A DNA stretch of 64,000 bases from Candidatus Omnitrophota bacterium (lineage in GTDB: Bacteria > Omnitrophota > Gorgyraeia > Gygaellales > Profunditerraquicolaceae): NCBI GenBank assembly GCA_016782485.1, contig JADHYK010000001.1, positions 30,081 through 94,080 on the forward strand. Reading direction: 5' to 3'. Positions within the stretch are counted from its first letter, which is position 1. Each line of letters starts with the position of its first letter. Made by a program: the position numbers and the translations under genes. Positions 452-64,000 of the stretch are shown piece by piece. Under the pieces are notes generated by a model. That model was not told the DNA's origin and made no database searches. It worked only from the letters and a program-made list of their open reading frames with translations.

Positions 452-2166
452 AGCTTCTTTTCAAGAATAATCATCTGCACAGAATAGGGAGTTAATTGCA
501 GGGCCTCCTGATAAGATCCGTCTGCATTTATTTCTTTTTCTTCCAGAGGGACGAATTTACAATCCCTGCTGCAGGAAGAATCTACGGCAAACCTCTGGTA
601 CGTATAATCCCCTTTTGTAAGGTTATTGATATTTAAATTTATGCGGCGGGCTGAAAGACTAAGCCTTGCGGCTTTCTCGTATAACTGCTTTGCCCTCTTG
701 AGCAATGCCTTAATCTTTTTGGTTGCGCGCACAGCGGCAATCTCAATCTCGCCGGAGGAAATTTTTTCTATTGTCTCGCGTTTGATAAGGTTGAGCAGGA
801 TTTTTCTTTCTGCCTTTTTTAAAGTGGCGATGTTGCGCGATAAATAGTTATTAACTATCTCCGGGTCGATGTAGTTATAAATAATAACCGCCAATCCCTC
901 TTTTCTCCTGGTGGCGATAACCCCGCAGAAGTCATCTTCGAATTTCGTTAAAAACATATCCGGCCCGAGATTCTCCAGCATCCTGAAGACGTTATAGGTG
1001 GCCTTGGGGCTGCCCCGGTACCCTGAATACTCCGGATCAAAGCTAAATATACCGACGTTACGCACCACGCCCTCTTTGTTATTCTTAAAATCCTCCAGGC
1101 AAAAATAGACCTGATAATCAATACCTGTCTCGTACATATTCTTGATGCGGGCAGGAATATAGCTGGCAGCGATATAAGATTTTTCCTTCCTCTCGGGCAG
1201 GACATTGGCGCTGCGGTCGTAATTCCATTCGTCGACTATTAAAGGTATATTCCTGTCAAATTTAAAATAAGAAAGCCACTCCCGTATCAGTTTGACCGCG
1301 GTCTTTTTATAAGCGGTGTTTTCCTTCTCTACGGCCTGGTCGGTAGAAAATCCGTGCCAGCTGATAAAATCCAGGGGCAGCCGGTAGCGGTAGCAGAATT
1401 TAATCAGTTCGTAGATCAGGCTTTTCTGGGGAGTCACGATAGTATTGCCGTCGAGATTCTGAAACCACCAGCTTACTGCCGGCCCGCCTATCGGGATATG
1501 CATCTTGGTCTCTGCCTTTAGCTCTTTTATGCCCTCTGCGACCGCGCGGTAAAGGTTAAAATACTCCTGTTTTCTGCCTAAAAAGAAATCGTCCAGATCC
1601 GGGGCATTCCATATTTCATACCAGACATTATACTTTTTATCGCAGCTTAACTCCCGGACCGTAGACTTAATTAACTCCTTAAATGCCTTCAGATTCCAGG
1701 GCGGGCTTTTTTTATCCAAGACCTTGCCTAAACCGGCCGGCGTACCAAAGATGTCCAGAATGACTATGCCTCCGGCATCGCTTATGGACTTAATGATGCT
1801 TTCGTAATTGCCAAGAAGCGCTGTCTGCGCCTCTTTATCCTTGGAAAGCTGGTTTATCTCCCAGAGGCTGTATTGCAGCCGATAAACCCCCCTGAAGCCG
1901 ATCTCCTGCCGCCAGATATCCACCGCCTCTTTGGCCGCCATCGCCTGCGGCCAGCCGGGGTCGCGATGAAATCCCCGGCCGCTTAAATCAACGCCGGGCC
2001 TGAATACCTTTGGCAGGGGGACGGTATTAGAGGCAGCATCGAGATTAATTACCAGGCTGTCATCCTGGGCGAATAGTCCACAGCGTCCAGCAGTCCACAG
2101 TCCACAGACAAAGACCATAATAAACAAGAAAAAACATACTAGGGCCTTCTGGCTTAAATTTAACAT
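448..2166 (-). CDS. Exported GH clan A (GH5/GH39-like) TIM-barrel protein with a basic coiled-coil C-terminal tail. The NEP acid/base motif reads NAP
   Basis: N-terminal signal-peptide-like hydrophobic segment ending AFAQ. Motif YEIWNAPD at the clan GH-A (F/Y)E(I/V)WNEP position, and IVDEWN at the nucleophile position. 572 aa. Confidence 0.45.
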   Translation of the reverse strand: MLNLSQKALVCFFLFIMVFVCGLWTAGRCGLFAQDDSLVINLDAASNTVPLPKVFRPGVDLSGRGFHRDPGWPQAMAAKEAVDIWRQEIGFRGVYRLQYSLWEINQLSKDKEAQTALLGNYESIIKSISDAGGIVILDIFGTPAGLGKVLDKKSPPWNLKAFKELIKSTVRELSCDKKYNVWYEIWNAPDLDDFFLGRKQEYFNLYRAVAEGIKELKAETKMHIPIGGPAVSWWFQNLDGNTIVTPQKSLIYELIKFCYRYRLPLDFISWHGFSTDQAVEKENTAYKKTAVKLIREWLSYFKFDRNIPLIVDEWNYDRSANVLPERKEKSYIAASYIPARIKNMYETGIDYQVYFCLEDFKNNKEGVVRNVGIFSFDPEYSGYRGSPKATYNVFRMLENLGPDMFLTKFEDDFCGVIATRRKEGLAVIIYNYIDPEIVNNYLSRNIATLKKAERKILLNLIKRETIEKISSGEIEIAAVRATKKIKALLKRAKQLYEKAARLSLSARRINLNINNLTKGDYTYQRFAVDSSCSRDCKFVPLEEKEINADGSYQEALQLTPYSVQMIILEKKL

Positions 2167-6349: not shown

Positions 6350-9340
6350 TTATTCCTTCTTTTCGCGTTCCTTCTTCTCCGCAACAATCTTTTCGGCGAT
6401 TTCGGCGGGGACTTGCAGGTACTTGGAGAATTCCATGGAGGCGTTAGCACGGCCGCTGCTTAAAGAGCGGATATTGGTGGCGTATCCGAACATCTCCGCT
6501 AAGGGCACCTCTGCGGAGATGATTTTTTGTTTGCCTTTGGTGTCCATGTTCATTACCTTTCCCCGGCGGGAACAGATGTAGCCGACGATACTGTTCACAT
6601 ATTCCTCGGGGGTATTGACCTTAAGGGACATATAGGGCTCAAGGAGTGCCGGCTCGGCTTTCAGAAAGATCTCCTTGAATCCCAATATCGCAGCCATCTT
6701 GAAAGCAAGCTCAGAAGAGTCTACTTCATGATATGAACCGTCAATCAGGCTTACCTTAAGGTCCACTACGGGATAGCCGGCATAAACGCCCTTTTGCATC
6801 GCCTCTATCACGCCCTTTTCCACCGCCGGGATAAATGATTTCGGAATCGCGCCTCCTTTGATCTTATCTATAAATTCAAATCCCTCTCCTGCGCCGCTAG
6901 GGGCAATCTCCATTACCACATGGCCATATTGGCCCCTGCCGCCGGACTGTTTGATATATTTACCCTCTCCGGATGTCTTAGCCTTTATGGTCTCACGGTA
7001 GGCCACCTTCGGCTGGCTTACGTTTGCCTCGACACCGAACTCCTGCTTAAGCCTGTCCACGATAATTTCCAGATGCAGCTCGCCCATGCCGGTAAGCACG
7101 GTTTCCTTTGTCTCCTCATCGGTCTCCACAATAAATGTGGGGTCCTCCTGCGTCAGTTTGGCTAAACCCTTACCGAGCTTATCCTGGTCTGCACGGCTCT
7201 TCGGGCTGATACTAAGCGAAACCACGGGTACCGGAAATTCTATCGCCTCCAGAATAATCGGGTTGTCCATGCTGGAAAGCGTATCGCCGGTTATGGTATC
7301 GGTAAGCCCGATCACCGCCACAATATCTCCGGCGAATGCGCACTCAATATTTTCCTTCTGGTCGGCATGAACCTGCACCAGCCTGCCCACCCTTTCTTTT
7401 TTATCCCTGCTGGCATTAAGCACATAAGAACCGGTATTCAGGAACCCGGAATAAACCCTTACATAAACCAGCTTACCAATATGCTGGTCAGCCTGTAGTT
7501 TAAAAGCAACCCCGGAAAAGGGTTCGTTTATATCGGGCCTGCGTTGTATCTGTTTATCGGGGCTGCCGGGTTCATTGCCGCAAACCGAGGCTAAATCCGA
7601 CGGCGAGGGCAGGTATAAATTTACCGCGTCAAGCAGTTTCTGTATCCCTTTATTTTTAAAGGCCGCCCCGCACAACACAGGGACTGCCCTGTTGGCGATA
7701 GTGCCGCGGCGCAGCGCTTTTATTAACTCCTCCTGTGTAATCGAACCCTGCGACTCCAGGTATTTTTTAGTCAGGGCTTCGTCAAGGACAACAGCCTTTT
7801 CCAGCAGCAGATGCCGGTACTTATCGGCCTGCTCTTTACAATCTGCGGGGATATCTGCGACGCTAAACTCTTTACCCTGAGAGCCCTCGTCGTATATGTA
7901 GGCCTTCATCTCTATGAGGTCAATCACCCCTTTAAAACCGCCTTCTGCACCGATAGGGATCTGGAGCGCTAGTGTGTTGCCGCCGAGCTCCTGCTCAATG
8001 TCCGCTAAAACCGCGAAAAAATCCGCACCCACCCTGTCCATCTTATTGATAAATGCTATTTTGGGCACGTTGTATTTATTTGACTGGTGCCACACGGTTT
8101 CCGACTGCGGCTCCACCCCTCCGACGGCACAGAAGACCACTATTGCTCCGTCGAGAACTCGTAAGGAACGTTCGACCTCGACCGTAAAATCCACATGCCC
8201 CGGCGTATCGATAATGGAAATCCTGTGCTCCTTCCAGAAACAGGTAGTGGCCGCAGCGGTGATGGTAATGCCCCTTTCCTGCTCCTGCTTCATCCAGTCC
8301 ATCTGCGCCTTGCCATCGTGAACCTCCCCTATCTTGTGGGAACGGCCGGTATAAAATAAAATCCGCTCCGTCAGGGTAGTTTTGCCGGCATCGATATGCG
8401 CAATGATACCTATATTTCTGACCTTCTGCATATCAATGGACGGCGGTATCCGGGGTTTTTCCTCCTGCGCCTTCCCTGCTGTTTCCTCAGCTGGCGCCTG
8501 TTTTGGCTGCGGCTCCGGCTGTTTCTGCTCCGGCGGCTTGGCCTCGGGTGGCTGCGGCGGCGGCTCCGGTTGCGGCTTCTCTTCGACGGCCTTTGCCTCA
8601 ACTTCTTCCGCAGGAGGTTGTGCTGGTTTGGGCGGCTCCTTGGCCTTCTTGCTCAGCTGGCTCTTCAATAACACCAGCTCTTCCGCGTAGAGCTCCAGCT
8701 TCTTCTCCCTTTGCTCCAGCTCCTCTTCTAATTCCGTGTACTCCTGGTTTAACTTATTGAATTCTGCCTTTGGAATCCACTCGCTGTTTTCCTCTTTTTT
8801 TTTGAACTCTCTGATCGTCTCCAGGTGCGCCTTTATCTCCTGGGCATATTTTTCCAGCTGGTGCTTCTGGATCTCAACCTGCTCGGCTATGCTCTTTTTC
8901 TCCTGACTATGATCCTGCAACCCCTCTTTTAACTCGTTTATTTCCCGGGTCAGATTTATATTCTTGGTAAACTCCTCCTGCAGCTTTCTTTCCTGCTCGA
9001 GAAATTTATCGCGCAGCTGGGAGTTCTCCGCCCTGACTTTATCCAGCATCTGGTCGGACTTGGCAACCCAATCCTCTCTTCTGGTCAACTCCTCCTTTAG
9101 TTTTGGTTCTTTCACCTTCGCCGCCTCAAATGCTTTATGAATGTTGACGTAATCGCTCTTTACCCGGCTTAGTTCTAATTCTTTAGAGCGGACCTCTGCC
9201 TCCAGCCGCCGGGTCTTCTGCTCCCGGGGGTCAGGGCCGGATTTCCCGGGCTGTGCGCCGCCGCCGGAGAAGATGCCGTACAGGGCATAGGCCACCATAA
9301 ATATGCCCGAAAAAACCAGTATCTGAAAAATTATATTCAT
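6350..9340 (-). CDS. Elongation factor G homolog carried on a 303-aa N-terminal extension: TM helix, long coiled coil, Pro/Glu/Lys-rich linker
   Basis: Residues 304-996 are canonical EF-G ([24 protein letters not shown]...[40 protein letters not shown]...[10 protein letters not shown], domains II-V). Residues 1-303 are [24 protein letters not shown] (TM), then heptad-rich E/K sequence, then [22 protein letters not shown]. There is no in-frame stop between the two parts. An internal Met sits at 8431. Confidence 0.75.
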
Positions 9341-30610: not shown

Positions 30611-33375
<2,765 letters not shown>

Positions 33376-36300
33376 ATGTATACGCAAAACGAAAAAATCA
33401 TCCCGGTTTGTATCGAAGAAGAGGTAAAGGACTCGTATTTAAATTACGCCATGAGCGTTATCGTCGGCCGCGCCCTGCCCGATGTACGCGACGGCTTAAA
33501 GCCGGTGCATCGCAGGATCCTTTATGCGATGCGGGAGCTGGGCCTTGAACACAGTAAGCCCTATAAGAAATGCGCGCGTATCGTGGGCGATACAATGGGC
33601 CGTTTCCACCCGCATGGAGACGTTGCGATATATGATACGATAGTAAGAATGGCGCAGGATTTTTCCCTGCGCTATCCGTTGGTTGATGGCCAGGGAAACT
33701 TTGGCTCAATCGACGGCGACGCCGCTGCGGCCATGCGCTATTGCATAACGGGAGACGCCTTTATTATTACGAATCAAGGCTTACGCAGAATAGACGAGGT
33801 TCCCCATCATTCAAAAACCAGTTTCTTCACGCTCTCAGCGGGTAATAAAATAAATCATGTTTCACAATGGTTTGATTCTGGGGAGCATCCGACAAAGAGA
33901 ATTTCTACATTCAGAGGTTTTAGTCTATGCGGCAGCTTGAACCACCCTATTCTTATATGGCAGAAAAATGGCCTAAAGCCAAAATTCGTATGGAAATTAT
34001 TAAACCAGGTAAAGGTCAATGACTATGCTGTGATAAGCAGGAGTGATGCATTATTCCCTATAAAAGAGCCTTCGCTTAAAGAGTATTATCCAGAAGATAA
34101 AAATCGAAGACAAAAACACGTGCTCCCTAGCGTTATGAACGAAGATCTCGCCTTCATTTTAGGGGCCATAGTTGCGGAGGGCTCTATAAGCAAGGAGCAA
34201 ATTGGTTTCTGTAACGGGGATGAAGAGTTTATTAAAAAATATAAATTGAGCTTCAAAAGGACATTTCCCGATTGTCGTCTCCATGAGTTCGTAAGAAAGC
34301 CGTTAGGGTTTGGTAAGAGGAATTGCACTTACTTAGAGATTCATTCAAGGCAGGTTATTGGATTTTTAAAAAATTTGGGGCTGCGTCAAGCCCGGGCCCA
34401 AGTAAAAACTACGCCTTCTATAGTTTTTTCTTCTTCAAAACAATCAGTTGGCGCTTTTATTAGCGGTTATGCCGAAGGAGATGGAAGCATTTGTATTGGC
34501 AAAAGAAATCCAGACATAAGTTTTATATCAACGAGCGAAAAATTAATCCAAGAACTACAGATTCTGCTATTAAGGTTTGGCATAGATTCTTCCTACAGGT
34601 TTCATAAACAAAAAAAATACTTTAGGTTGTTTATAAGAGGCCATGAGAACCTAAACTTATTTAAAAATCAAATAGGTTTTGTTACAGAAAGCAGTTGTAG
34701 AAGATTAGCAGATATTTGCAGTCGGAATAGCGATGGTTGGGTGATGTCAAAGTTAGACTTTGTACCTTATTTAGCGGACTACATTCGAAGGAAGGCCGCA
34801 AGGCAAAGAAGGAAATATTGGGGGCACATAGAGTGGCTTAAGAAACACAACATTGACAGATACCCAAAAATAGAAAAAATTTGGCCTAGACTAAAACGTA
34901 TTCTCGACAGAGAAGATCGCGATCTGCTTGATGCAGTAATAAAAAATAGATATATCTTTGACAAAATTACTTCTGTAGAAGATTCTGAAAAAAAGAGAGT
35001 TTATTCTATTAAAGTCGATAGTCCTTGTCACTCCTTTGTATCAAACGGTTTTATAAGTCATAACACTGAGGCTCGGCTTGCCGCAATCTCCGACGAGATG
35101 TTAGCGGATATTGACAAGGATACGGTGAATTTCGGGCCGAATTTTGACGCGTCTTTATCCGAGCCGCTTTTATTGCCGGCGGCTTTGCCCAATCTCTTGG
35201 TCAACGGCTCCAGCGGTATAGCAGTGGGCATGGCTACGAATATCCCTCCGCATAATTTAACGGAAGTAGTCGAGGCGATTATTTGTCTGCTGGATAATCC
35301 GGCGGCAGAGGTTAAAGAGCTGATGCATTATATAAAGGGGCCGGATTTTCCGACGGGAGGGATAATCTGCGGCCGGGGCGGCATTAAAGATGCCTATACT
35401 ACGGGCAAGGGTAAGCTTTTGGTGCGGGCGCGCGCTACCGTCGAGCATCAGAAGGGCGGCAAGGATTTGATTGTGATCACCGAAATTCCCTATCAGGTGC
35501 AGAAGGCCGGCGTCATTGAGGCGGTAGCGGAACTTGTAGAGGAGAAAAAGATAGAGGGGATTTCCGATATACGCGACGAATCCGATAAGGAAGGAATGCG
35601 CATCGTGGTTGAGCTTAAGCGCGATGCGGATTCGCAGATTGTCTTAAACCAGCTTTACAAGCATACGCAGCTTGAGGCTACTTTCGGCGTTATTATGCTG
35701 GCGCTGGTTGAGAACAGGCCCCGGATTTTGAACCTGCGCCAGACGCTCGAGCTATATATCGGGCACCGCAAGGTTATTATCCGCCGGCGCACGAGTTTCG
35801 AGCTGGATAAGGCGTTAAAGAGGGCGCATATACTTGAGGGGTTAAAGATCGCCCTTAAGTATATCGACCGCATCATCAAGGCAATCAAGACTTCCGCGAA
35901 TACCCAGATTGCCAAAGAGCGCCTGATGAAAGAGTTCGGGCTTTCCCAGATTCAGGCCCAGGCGATATTGGAGATGCAGCTGCAGCGCCTGACCGCGCTT
36001 GAACGCGACAAGATAGACGCCGAATACGCGGAGCTGCTTAAAAAAATCGAATTATGCAAGGCGATACTTGCCTCTGAAAAGAAGATAGAGGGCATTATTA
36101 AGGAAGAGCTGGGAGAGCTGAAGAAGAAATACGGCGATGAACGCAGGACGGAGATAATCGGCGAAGTGCAGGAGCTGGAGATAGAGGATTTAATCGCGGA
36201 AGAGGATGTGGTGGTGATCATCAGCCACGGCGGTTATATTAAACGCCTGCCGGTCAGCTCTTACCGCAAGCAGAAGAGGGGGGGCCGCGGCGCAACCGGC

Positions 36301-37128
36301 GCCGAAGTTAAAGAGGAGGATTTTATCGAGCATATTTTTGTCGCCTCCACCAAAGACCACGTTTTAATTTTTAGCGAAAAGGGCCAGGTACACTGGCTGA
36401 AGGTTTACGAGATCCCCCAGGCCAGCCGCATCTCCAAGGGCAAGGCGATAATCAACCTTATAGATATAACCCCGGGCTCCAAGATTAGCTCAACCATCCC
36501 GATCAGGGAGTTTTCCGGAGACAACTATCTGGTGATGTTGACCAAAAAGGGCCAGATTAAAAAGACCAGATTGGATGCCTACAGTAATCCGCGCAAAGGC
36601 GGGATTATCGGAATTACGCTGGAGAAGGACGATGCGCTGATCGCCGTGGAACTTACCGACGGTAAACAGGAGTTGCTGATCGGCACGCGCCAGGGCAAGG
36701 CCCTGAGGTTCCCCGAAAGCAAAGTCAGGGATATGGGCAGGGCGGCGCGGGGGGTGCGCGCGATTTCCCTGGCCAAACAAGACGAGGTCATCGCGATGGT
36801 ATTGGCGCGTAAGGATGCGACCATACTTACGGTTACGGAATTAGGGTATGCCAAACGCACTTCGGCGGATGAATACCGGCTTACCAGCCGCGGAGGTAAG
36901 GGCATTATTAACATAAAGGTTACCGCTAAAAACGGCGAGGCGGTCAGCCTGAAGTCGGTCAGCGACAAGGATGAGTTGATGGTGATTACCCAAAACGGGG
37001 TATTTTTGCGCTGTGCGGTCAAAGACATCCGCTCAAGCGGCAGGTCTTCACAGGGGGTGCGCCTGATTAAGCTGCAGGGCAAGGACCATGTCTCATGCGT
37101 TGCCCGGGTAATTGCCGAAGAAGGATAA
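33376..37128 (+). CDS. gyrA: DNA gyrase subunit A interrupted by a 441-aa intein immediately after the catalytic Tyr
   Basis: Exteins: ...GDAAAAMRY(122) | intein | [13 protein letters not shown]... 809 aa without the intein. C-terminal beta-pinwheel repeats present. Confidence 0.95.
33742..35064 (+). mobile_element. GyrA intein with a LAGLIDADG homing-endonuclease domain
   Basis: Begins Cys ([12 protein letters not shown]), block B GSLNHPIL, two LAGLIDADG motifs ([14 protein letters not shown]; [15 protein letters not shown]), ends ...VSNGFISHN followed by +1 Thr. 1323 nt in frame. Confidence 0.85.
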
Positions 37129-62002: not shown

Positions 62003-62079
62003 GGGCGCTTGGCTCAGTTGGTTAGAGCGGTAGATTTACATTCTACAGGTCAGAGGTTCAAGTCCTCTAGCGCCCACCA
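62003..62079 (+). tRNA. tRNA-Val (anticodon TAC), CCA encoded
   Basis: GGGCGCTTGGCTCAGTTGGTTAGAGCGGTAGATTTACATTCTACAGGTCAGAGGTTCAAGTCCTCTAGCGCCCACCA. Anticodon loop TTTACAT. Confidence 0.85.
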
Positions 62080-62087
62080 ATTATAAT

Positions 62088-63068
62088 ATGTATATCCTTG
62101 AAAGCACAAACAGGTTTAGAAGAATAGAGAGAAGGTTTAATGTCCCTATGCAAGATTTAATTTATCAGATGCATTGGTTGGAAGATATGAAGCATCGGGA
62201 TATCGCTCTAAATTTACATGTTCCCAGAGCCACGATAACAAGGTGGTTCAGGCATTTTAAACTTCCGACGCAGAGTTGCAGAAGGTTTACCGATAAGAAT
62301 CTTACCAGTTGGCTGTATAAGACCGGGCAATTAAAGAAAAAAGTAAGATATGCCGGTCCGGATAGAAGAATTCAAGTAGCCAAATCTAGGGTTAACGTCG
62401 ATTTCTTCAAGAAATGGTCTGCGGGAATGGCGTATGTTCTGGGATACTTTGCGGCGGATGGTTCTATGTATATTAATCCTAATGGCTCAAAATATATTGC
62501 TTTTTATTCTAATGATTTAGAAATACTGAAGAAAATCAAATTCTCTTTAAACTCTGGCCATAAAATTGCTTTAAGAAAAAGATACAATAAAAACTGGAAG
62601 GATTCTTTTATATTGCAAATTGGCTCTGCTGAGATGTATAAAGATTTAATTAAATTAGGGTTCAGCCCCAAAAAGGAATTGAGGCTCAAACTCCCAAAGG
62701 TTCCCAGAAGATATTTAAGACACTTTATAAGGGGGTATTTTGATGGAGACGGCAATATCAGCTACAACTATTACCGTAAATCAACAAATCCCAATGCTAA
62801 ATTTATGCATCAACAGATTATTTTTGCAGCAGCCAATAAGAATTTTGTAAAAGCATTAGAAAATAGATTATCAGAAGTTGCAAAAATTTCTTATTCTTGT
62901 TTTAAGAGTGCCAAAGACAGCAACAGCCACTATTTAATATATTACAGACAAAAAGAAATTCTTAAGTTAATTAAATTTATGTACAGTAATGTCAATTCTT
63001 TGTTGTATTTAAATAGAAAATATGATAAGTTTATGAGTTGGAAACGTCTCATCGGGGACGTAGCGTAG
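62088..63068 (+). CDS. Free-standing LAGLIDADG homing endonuclease with an N-terminal HTH-like region, in an AT-rich segment between two tRNA genes
   Basis: Two LAGLIDADG motifs (MAYVLGYFAADGSMYI; LRHFIRGYFDGDGNISY). N-terminal HRDIALNLHVPRATITRWF. Local AT content is much higher than the surrounding DNA. The last 15 nt overlap the tRNA-Asp 5' end. Confidence 0.75.
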   Translation: MYILESTNRFRRIERRFNVPMQDLIYQMHWLEDMKHRDIALNLHVPRATITRWFRHFKLPTQSCRRFTDKNLTSWLYKTGQLKKKVRYAGPDRRIQVAKSRVNVDFFKKWSAGMAYVLGYFAADGSMYINPNGSKYIAFYSNDLEILKKIKFSLNSGHKIALRKRYNKNWKDSFILQIGSAEMYKDLIKLGFSPKKELRLKLPKVPRRYLRHFIRGYFDGDGNISYNYYRKSTNPNAKFMHQQIIFAAANKNFVKALENRLSEVAKISYSCFKSAKDSNSHYLIYYRQKEILKLIKFMYSNVNSLLYLNRKYDKFMSWKRLIGDVA

Positions 63069-64000
63069 CCTGGTTTAACGCGATAGATTGTCGATCTATA
63101 GACCGCGGGTTCAAATCCCGTCGTCCCCGCCAGTCAACATTTGTGGGGGAAACCCCCACAAATGAAAACGGCGAACGCCAAGAAAGATAAAGGGTTCGGT
63201 TTTTTAGAATAAAGTTCGAACCTGTTTTTAGTAAGAATTCTCTCTTGGGCAGGAAATTTCTTTTCAAAGCGACATAGCTTGCGGAATTGCAAGTAGTTAT
63301 AAAATCCCTCACCCGTTCGAACCGAGATAGACCTTTCCGCCCAAAATCCTCTAATTTTTCCCTTAACTCAACCTTTTCTGTGAGCAGTTTCTGTTTCTTA
63401 ACAACATATTCTTCCTGTAAAATTTTTTCGCCCAGATAGAAATCTAACAGTCGCTCAAGCTGTGCGTCTATCGCCTCAATTTTATCTTTCATCTGCTGCT
63501 TGACGGAAAAATTAGAGGTCTCACTCTCTACGCTCACCTTTTGCAATTCCGCAAGCATAAGCTCACCAATATCGTCACTAATAGACAATTGCTGGATATG
63601 ATTGTTGATTTGCGCGGCCAGCGCCTCTTCGCGGATGTAGCGCTGTGAACATTTAATCTTGCGCTTAGTGCAGTGATAATAGTAATGGCCTTTTTTCGTT
63701 TCAGCAGTCACCAGGCAACCACACTCCCCACACCTTACGAACCCTCTAAAGACAAATAAATCTTTTTTAGGGTTGTGCGGCTTATTGCGGCTTGCGAGTA
63801 CCGCATGCACTTTATCAAACAATGTCTTTGAGATTAGCGGTGGATGAGAACCATCGTAAAATTCACCTTTATACTTAAACACTCCATAATAAAAAGTGTT
63901 TTTAAGGATTAGTTCGATTGCGCGATTATCTGGCAAGCCGCCGCGAGTGCCGATAAGTCCGGCATCGCGCAATTTAGCGCCCACAGATTCAAAAGTGTGG
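63049..64000 (-). CDS. Large serine recombinase, C-terminal portion (recombinase domain, zinc ribbon, coiled coil). N-terminus lies beyond the window end
   Basis: CGECGCLVTAETKKGHYYYHC zinc ribbon, long coiled coil (QLERLLDFYLGEKILQEEYVVKKQKLLTEKVELREKLEDF), recombinase-domain motif LIGTRGGLPDNRAIELILKNTFYYGV. The reading frame runs antisense through tRNA-Asp before its first stop, so the true C-terminus is uncertain. Confidence 0.6.
   Translation of the reverse strand, partial: HTFESVGAKLRDAGLIGTRGGLPDNRAIELILKNTFYYGVFKYKGEFYDGSHPPLISKTLFDKVHAVLASRNKPHNPKKDLFVFRGFVRCGECGCLVTAETKKGHYYYHCTKRKIKCSQRYIREEALAAQINNHIQQLSISDDIGELMLAELQKVSVESETSNFSVKQQMKDKIEAIDAQLERLLDFYLGEKILQEEYVVKKQKLLTEKVELREKLEDFGRKGLSRFERVRDFITTCNSASYVALKRNFLPKREFLLKTGSNFILKNRTLYLSWRSPFSFVGVSPTNVDWRGRRDLNPRSIDRQSIALNQATLRPR
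63054..63132 (+). tRNA. tRNA-Asp (anticodon GTC), CCA encoded
   Basis: GGGGACGTAGCGTAGCCTGGTTTAACGCGATAGATTGTCGATCTATAGACCGCGGGTTCAAATCCCGTCGTCCCCGCCA. Anticodon loop TTGTCGA. Followed by the hairpin TTGTGGGGGAAACCCCCACAA (63141..63161). Confidence 0.8.

Follow-up and report, generated by a model that had tools for sequence, protein, structure and literature searches.

A gyrA intein with a nested LAGLIDADG endonuclease in an Omnitrophota genome, and a probable co-conversion footprint around it

Inteins at the catalytic tyrosine of GyrA have been familiar from the 1990s onward and are the subject of a dedicated NCBI model; those of mycobacteria are textbook examples (table in PMC8861304), and a study of archaeal gyrase reported, and removed, 23 intein-containing GyrA sequences (PMC9348778). 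Co-conversion of flanking extein has been described for intein homing in Haloferax (PMC10643990). In the literature we found no specific description of a GyrA intein in Omnitrophota. Here we analyse such a locus in a 64,000-nucleotide (nt) stretch of a Candidatus Omnitrophota genome (assembly GCA_016782485.1, contig JADHYK010000001.1, positions 30,081 to 94,080; hereafter the window, with positions counted from its first letter). The gyrA gene of the window carries a 441-amino-acid (aa) insert that very probably belongs to the class-1 inteins of the allelic family at the catalytic tyrosine of GyrA ('gyrA-a'), with a monomeric double-LAGLIDADG endonuclease nested inside it, and that appears to have been gained horizontally and recently. 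As an object the element is routine. Set beside an intein-less sister genome, it forms a natural before-and-after pair, in which genes ~96% identical elsewhere differ by a 1.3-kb AT-rich insert and by approximately 260 nt of foreign extein that flank it; the pair would be a natural-population instance of the co-conversion known from the laboratory.

The gyrA gene and its insert

The gyrA precursor scored 1196 bits against the NCBIfam GyrA equivalog (cut-off 902). The gene and the parts of its insert are as follows; E is the expect value.

33376..37128, + strand: gyrA precursor open reading frame (ORF), 1250 aa with the intein, 809 aa spliced; Pfam DNA_topoisoIV (E 1e-159) and DNA_gyraseA_C
33376..33741, + strand: N-extein, residues 1-122; its last codon, TAT (33739..33741), is the catalytic Tyr122
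33742..35064, + strand: intein, 441 aa, Cys1 to His440-Asn441, by sequence, Pfam, NCBIfam and structure model
33742..34056, + strand: N-terminal Hint lobe, intein residues 1-105, with block A (Cys1); aligns to residues 3-109 of the Mycobacterium xenopi (Mxe) GyrA intein and is beta-rich in the model
33931..33948, + strand: block B, G64-S-L-N67-H68-P; N67 and H68 are invariant in 11 homologues
34057..34941, + strand: homing-endonuclease region, residues 106-400; two LAGLIDADG_3 stretches, matching the endonuclease domains of TliVMA and PI-PkoII
34147..34182, + strand: LAGLIDADG motif 1, intein residues 136-147, with predicted catalytic Glu146; E146 and G147 are invariant
34447..34485, + strand: LAGLIDADG motif 2, intein residues 236-248 (ISGYAEGD247G), with predicted catalytic Asp247; E245, G246 and D247 are invariant
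34942..35064, + strand: C-terminal Hint lobe, residues 401-441, blocks F and G; aligns to Mxe GyrA residues 148-199
35065..37128, + strand: C-extein; its first residue is the +1 nucleophile, Thr564

The insert begins with Cys at 33742, directly after AAAMRY(122), and ends ...NGFISHN at 35064, followed by T564-EARLAAI at 35065; intein-less homologues read AAAMRY/TE without interruption (a slash marks an insertion point or splice junction). In a collection of 5.8 billion proteins the two nearest GyrA, P0032 (Omnitrophota, 95% identity) and P0033 (89%), are both 809 aa long and intein-free, and because their genes align gapless to the spliced gyrA (2430 nt to 2430 nt), the difference is a clean indel of 441 aa. 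The coordinates given for this in-frame insert by the original prediction, a model's reading of the DNA letters, were correct to the base; the alignment to GyrA orthologues that it proposed as a check gave the expected clean indel, and the terminal residues it named (Cys1, His-Asn and Thr+1) are all in place. The 120 best GyrA hits are 82-100% identical and, where named, from Omnitrophota; 117 of them have a length of 805-815 aa and no intein. The three with inserts are the window's own protein, P0041 and P0130, and only the window's insert lies at the Tyr122 site.

Both halves of a Hint domain, whose blocks had been read from the letters, align to the Mxe GyrA intein (1am2; E 6e-20) over intein residues 2-101 and 390-441. 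The precursor aligns to NCBIfam NF038098, 'intein-containing DNA gyrase subunit A', over positions 2-1228 of 1232, and the intein alone matches the intein segment of that model (positions 117-537) with E 1.8e-55. An alignment of the window intein with ten same-site homologues at 39-61% identity (11 sequences) has C1, N67, H68, E146, G147, E245, G246 and D247 invariant, together with V420, Y421, S422, H430, N435, G436, F437, H440 and N441 in the C-terminal lobe. With the class-1 splicing residues complete (Cys1, block-B S65-L-N-H68, H440-N441 and Thr+1), we infer autocatalytic splicing. The allele must in any case yield functional GyrA, because gyrA is essential, is interrupted at its catalytic Tyr and is present at 41-52x coverage in three assemblies. 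By its score against the NCBI model and its identity to the mycobacterial inteins, both given below, the intein represents, in Omnitrophota, a divergent branch of the family at the GyrA catalytic Tyr.

The homing-endonuclease domain, with its two LAGLIDADG motifs, was predicted to be intact, and three lines agree with that. Pfam LAGLIDADG_3 matches in two stretches (E 1e-19, 70.8 bits against a cut-off of 22.5), the putative catalytic acids are invariant, and an AlphaFold model built from the same-site alignment is confident (predicted local distance difference test, pLDDT, 86; predicted template-modelling score, pTM, 0.88). In the model the motifs lie on helices H134-146 and H233-247, and the order of secondary-structure elements fits the pseudo-dimeric alpha-beta-beta-alpha-beta-beta-alpha fold. 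The double LAGLIDADG core spans approximately residues 130-312 and is followed by a helical extension, approximately residues 313-400, with an invariant HN-DR motif (H369, N370, D372 and R373); that this region makes extra DNA contacts is speculation. The best Foldseek matches in the PDB are whole endonuclease-bearing inteins, namely TliVMA (7qss; E 2.5e-22, template-modelling (TM) score 0.67), PI-PkoII, PI-PfuI and PI-SceI, with the free LAGLIDADG enzymes I-DmoI and I-Tsp061I among further matches (target TM 0.7). Compared with its nearest relative, the intein of locus L001, the endonuclease domain has a ratio of nonsynonymous to synonymous substitution rates (dN/dS) of 0.15 at an unsaturated dS of 0.59, and the ratio is 0.13 in the pair L003/L004; by this measure the domain has evidently been under purifying selection.

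From the families involved, a mechanism can be proposed. The 1250-aa precursor would be translated, block-B His68 would activate the N-terminal scissile bond and Cys1 would perform an N-S acyl shift; transesterification by Thr+1 would give a branched intermediate, Asn441 would cyclise with the aid of His440, and the exteins would be ligated to restore AAAMRY-TEARL and an active 809-aa GyrA. The precursor would not be an active gyrase, because 441 residues part the catalytic Tyr122 from the next helix, and splicing must therefore be efficient. The freed intein would bind an intein-less gyrA at the sequence coding for AMRY/TEAR and cut it with Glu146 and Asp247 in a metal-dependent reaction, and repair from the intein-bearing allele would copy the intein and some flanking extein DNA. 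The AMRY/TEAR coding sequence is nearly invariant, since the active site is encoded there, and this would account for the very wide host range observed.

The alternative that survives best, improbable as we judge it, is an intein that splices but whose endonuclease is inactive or decaying, by now a fixed passenger, past the invasion phase of the homing cycle. Endonuclease activity is a prediction here, near-identical copies in other hosts were not found (by a protein search with the intein, which was incomplete, and by a metagenome scan), and the dN/dS of the endonuclease exceeds that of the extein (0.15 against 0.03-0.07). Mini-inteins that arose by endonuclease loss are also known at the GyrA Tyr site, such as the Mxe GyrA intein of 198 aa (PMC8861304). 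The frame is nevertheless full length, the catalytic acids and motif glycines are invariant, the domain is confidently modelled, and dN/dS is far below 1 over that unsaturated dS. In addition, the acquisition appears recent relative to the sister genome, whose DNA is ~96% identical outside the tract described below.

A divergent tract around the insertion point

The sister genome, L083, and an outgroup, L084, both have an intein-less gyrA. In most 60-nt windows the spliced gyrA is 97-100% identical to that of L083, and at approximately nt 181-510, around the insertion point at nt 366, identity falls to 67-88%. The divergence from L083 forms a tract with two arms.

33583..33741, + strand: upstream arm of the tract, 159 nt
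35065..35163, + strand: downstream arm of the tract, 99 nt

The best-supported tract (nt 208-465) differs from L083 at 64 of 258 positions (24.8%), against 91 of 2172 (4.2%) elsewhere; the log-likelihood ratio of tract against the rest of the gene is 54, and the Fisher test gives p 2e-25, a value overstated by the choice of tract bounds after the data had been viewed. Protein co-adaptation cannot explain the tract, because the differences are mostly synonymous and alter the amino acid in only 12 of 86 codons. Relative to L084, the window is 24.8% divergent inside the tract and 13.6% outside, and L083 is 12.0% divergent inside and 13.4% outside. Because only the window's distance to the outgroup rises in the tract, the foreign segment sits in the window and not in L083. 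The amino-acid signature of the tract is shared with the intein-bearing relatives L003-L005 and is unlike that of the sister. The tract is probably a co-conversion footprint, in which double-strand-break repair copied the intein together with approximately 159 and 99 nt of donor extein. The intein-less site in L083, the putative target, reads ...GCAGCAATGCGTTAT/ACTGAGGCGCGCCTG... and, as written for a cleavage substrate, GATGCCGCCGCAGCAATGCGTTAT/ACTGAGGCGCGCCTGGCGGCAATT.

An old, vertically inherited intein, recently lost from L083 by gene conversion with an intein-less allele that imported the tract into L083, would leave much the same contrast between the two sisters, since the tract alone is symmetric between them. 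The intein-bearing L003-L005 and L023 fall in the same clade, at approximately 80-84% extein identity, and precise loss through recombination with an empty allele is an accepted part of the homing cycle. The distances to the outgroup speak otherwise, being normal for L083 and doubled for the window within the tract. With 117 of the 120 nearest GyrA lacking an intein, an intein GC content at third codon positions (GC3) 31 points under that of the extein, and an intein dS to L001 of 0.6 against at least 2 for the extein, we consider this history quite unlikely.

Composition and substitution rates point to recent, horizontal gain of the window intein. Its GC content is 37.6% and its GC3 35%, against 52.8% and 66% in the extein (GC3 of gyrB, 58%). 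Between the window and L001, dS is 0.56-0.62 in all three parts of the intein and 2.1-2.9 in the extein, although the AT-rich codon usage common to the two inteins could lower their apparent dS somewhat; in DNA the two loci are 85-88% identical over the intein and 73-77% over the extein. The contrast recurs between L003 and L004 (dS 0.18 in the intein, 1.40 in the extein). Across 40 complete loci, the identity of the inteins says little about that of the exteins (Spearman 0.24), and 228 of 780 pairs have the closer match in the intein. L023, with an extein 81% identical to that of the window, has an intein only 48% identical. By these comparisons the GyrA intein family is evidently mobile, and the window intein was evidently gained horizontally after the split from the sister, given gyrA DNA that is ~96% identical outside the tract. 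The suggestion that this is an 'active or recently active' homing element is accordingly backed, at the level of sequence comparison, by the intein-less sister, the tract, the composition, the dS contrast and the constraint on the endonuclease.

Besides the post hoc tract bounds and the shared codon usage just mentioned, several results weigh against this account. The whole protein scored 1193.8 bits against NF038098, below the cut-off of 1850 (an 'exception'-type model with a high cut-off), a shortfall that reflects a protein divergent from the model and of the same architecture. Of the Pfam families proposed for checking, LAGLIDADG_3 was clearly present, and Intein_splicing, at 29.8 bits, fell short of its cut-off of 35.8. 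The final 11 residues of the model, which was built without exteins, have pLDDT below 50; in sequence they are the family's most conserved part and match the sequence of the Mxe crystal structure. Intact motifs and a low dN/dS are a record of past constraint and not of present activity. The GC content of the intein is below that of the extein in nearly all of the 80 related loci examined. 'Recent' is meant relative to the split from the sister genome and is not an absolute date, and no donor was found: among the extein flanks of all intein-bearing loci fetched, the best match to the tract was 79% (L005), no better than in the rest of the gene, and the one relative that scanning metagenomes with the intein brought in (75%) also has flanks unlike the tract.

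Low GC was rejected as sufficient proof of recent arrival, because nearly every related intein is AT-richer than its extein; GC3 and the tract carry more weight. The intein of L001, the nearest, has the 85-88% DNA identity given above, and the L001 flanks are only 75% identical to the tract. The donor lies outside the collections searched. A word-indexed protein search with the intein alone was incomplete, missing the window's own 1250-aa protein (P0031), which a search with the extein found; because of that miss, the absence of close inteins in the word-indexed search is weak evidence.

On the L001 contig itself (ENA ERZ1286166 contig_3504), gyrB, gyrA and an SIS-domain (glmS-like) gene are split into short ORFs by single-base indels, which are probably sequencing or assembly errors rather than marks of pseudogenes. 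Its gyrB holds several intein fragments.

The intein might instead have been co-opted as a conditional switch, with splicing, and through it gyrase, responding to redox or another signal via Cys1 and Cys429. An insertion at the catalytic Tyr necessarily leaves the unspliced precursor inactive, Cys429 stands beside the block-F His in 9 of 11 homologues, and conditional splicing is on record for inteins such as that of mycobacterial DnaB (cited in PMC8861304). Asp replaces Cys429 in the other 2 of the 11, however, and a selfish element is the better fit to the sporadic distribution, the recent gain and the foreign composition, so that we give the switch little credence. Least credible is an assembly chimera of reads from two Omnitrophota strains or species, an idea invited by a metagenome assembly and by a conserved gene of the sort where chimeric joins typically fall: the locus recurs over 9.75 kb, at 8-10 mismatches and with the 1250-aa product unchanged, in the assemblies of two further samples (ERZ24794679 and ERZ24794672; contigs of 96 and 102 kb, coverage of 41x and 52x), a tract ~75% identical to the sister offers few long shared k-mers for two switches within 260 nt, and intein-bearing gyrA is common in related genomes.

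Gyrase inteins in related genomes and other features of the window

A horizontally gained gyrA intein in the window has a possible counterpart in the sister genome. The window's gyrB (30901..33375, 824 aa) is without an intein, and that of L083 (L083 4230..8000) holds a 432-aa intein at EGDSAGG/C...HN/SAKQGR, with a GC content of 36.8% and no LAGLIDADG match. Spliced gyrB of the window and L083 is 85-88% identical at approximately nt 1222-1401, around the site at nt 1341, and mostly 95-100% identical elsewhere; identity also falls to 87% in one other 60-nt window (1702-1761), and the dip is weaker than that of gyrA. L084 has neither a gyrA nor a gyrB intein, and L002 has both. We tentatively raise the possibility, the less probable way of reading the pair, that one Omnitrophota species group underwent two independent and very recent intein invasions, of gyrA in the window and of gyrB in the sister, with an identity dip at each site. 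If so, these ultra-small bacteria would have homing cycles under way in their natural populations, with inteins supplied by donors of other lineages, and inteins with their co-conversion tracts could trace DNA exchange among uncultivated, possibly cell-attached microbes. Such tracing might extend across phyla or domains. Patescibacteria and DPANN archaea have inteins of the same family.

How widely the family is spread is indicated by a scan of species representatives (one genome per prokaryotic species), in which 387 stretches encode a relative of the intein. The best 80 of the 387 are all full-length or nearly so, and their hosts include Omnitrophota, many Patescibacteria (candidate phyla radiation, CPR), DPANN (Woesearchaeota, Pacearchaeota and Nanoarchaeota), Armatimonadota, Margulisiibacteriota and others; among the taxon labels that third-party assemblies were given automatically, some look unreliable. 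The original prediction had placed the gyrA-a site in mycobacteria and archaea: the site was right, and the host range, among those best 80 of 387 stretches, is far wider. Where splice junctions are present in database protein homologues, they always read AAMRY/C...HN/TE.

P0041 and P0130 were ruled out as same-site inteins, their inserts following residues 72 and 110. The first is 462 aa long (RIVGE/C...HN/CLGKYHPHGD) and the second 525 aa (GQGNFG/C...HN/SVDGD). Locus L012 has an intein at each of the residue-110 and Tyr122 sites, with only 12 codons between the two. In the window, gyrA codon 74 (33595..33597, inside the tract) encodes Thr at the +1 position of the residue-72 site (RIVGD/TMGRF); among 119 close homologues that position is Val in 87 (VLGKY) and Thr or Cys in approximately 26. 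Thr74 could be a scar of, or a pre-adaptation to, a residue-72-site intein in the donor lineage. Omnitrophota gyrase genes are thus a hot spot for mobile inteins, a single clade having three sites in GyrA and one in GyrB. Many database entries of the GyrA intein family are truncated or fragmented, genes of this kind being mishandled by gene callers and length filters, and for gyrA and gyrB phylogenies the intein and its flanking tract need to be removed.

The gyrA locus is a typical origin-region locus, with dnaA, dnaN, dciA and gyrB upstream and tRNA-Glu, a 494-aa protein and glmS downstream. The order dnaA-dnaN-dciA-gyrB-gyrA-494aa-glmS is common to the window and the sister genome and is syntenic with Omnitrophota genomes. 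In the large ORFs of the window that were checked for further inteins (EF-G, CarB, PheT, GlmS, ThrRS, V-ATPase A and gyrB), none was seen. Three other features stand apart from gyrA.

62088..63068, + strand: free-standing two-motif LAGLIDADG endonuclease gene, 326 aa; Pfam LAGLIDADG_3 E 2e-13, phrog_4645 'endonuclease' E 1e-44
63049..63984, - strand: large serine recombinase/integrase, C-terminal part; phrog_95 integrase E 7e-33 (positions 285-508 of the 651 in the profile), Pfam Recombinase and Zn_ribbon_recom
6350..9340, - strand: EF-G ORF, 996 aa, approximately 300 aa over the usual length; GTPase domain from residue 305

The free-standing LAGLIDADG gene is wedged between tRNA-Val (62003..62079) and tRNA-Asp (63054..63132). 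Its GC3 of 36.5% makes it as foreign-looking as the intein, and by eye its N-terminal region resembles a helix-turn-helix. A second such gene had been noted from the letters as unrelated to the intein. It exists, and 'unrelated' does not hold: over the core it is 25% identical to the intein endonuclease (pairwise E 3e-7), a distant member of the same superfamily. At that level of core identity it was ruled out as a copy of the intein endonuclease. The 3' end of the recombinase gene overlaps tRNA-Asp, which suggests an integrated element that begins at tRNA-Asp and continues past the window end. In the EF-G ORF, the in-frame N-terminal part has, by eye, a hydrophobic segment, a long charged coiled-coil-like region and a Pro/Glu/Lys-rich linker; the excess is either a real membrane-anchored extension or the product of a mis-set start.

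Comparison with described inteins

The window intein shares with the mycobacterial GyrA inteins (M. xenopi, 1am2 and 4oz6; M. leprae) the insertion point AAMRY/TE, Cys1, His-Asn and Thr+1. The Hint parts align structurally with the mycobacterial GyrA intein and are approximately 28-30% identical to it; the C-terminal 22 residues of the Mxe GyrA intein, VYSLRVDTADHAFITNGFVSHN, were compared with the last 22 of the window intein. The M. leprae GyrA intein, with its endonuclease, is 420 aa long (PMC8861304), similar to the 441 aa found here. The Mxe GyrA intein is without an endonuclease, whereas the window intein has one, and the hosts differ, an actinobacterium on the one side and an uncultivated Omnitrophota bacterium on the other.

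The archaeal and yeast PI-type inteins, TliVMA/PhoVMA (7qss and 7qst), PI-PkoII (2cw7), PI-PfuI (1dq3) and PI-SceI (1vde and 1lws), have the same Hint domain split by a double-LAGLIDADG endonuclease. They match the window model with E 2.5e-22 to 1e-9 and TM up to 0.67-0.68, and the endonuclease matches in sequence with E 1e-13. Their host genes and target sites are different, their sequence identity to the window intein is 10-18%, and the window intein has a helical region of its own, approximately 90 residues long (313-400), between the LAGLIDADG core and the C-terminal Hint lobe.

For the proposed mobility, the closest parallel is with the MCM and PolB inteins of Haloferax (PMC10643990), which share the mechanism proposed here, cleavage of an empty allele followed by recombinational repair that copies the intein and its flanks. 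Haloferax inteins are sporadic among close relatives, as is the window intein. In Haloferax, homing was shown in vivo; in the Omnitrophota gyrA, it is read from the footprint left in the sequence alone.

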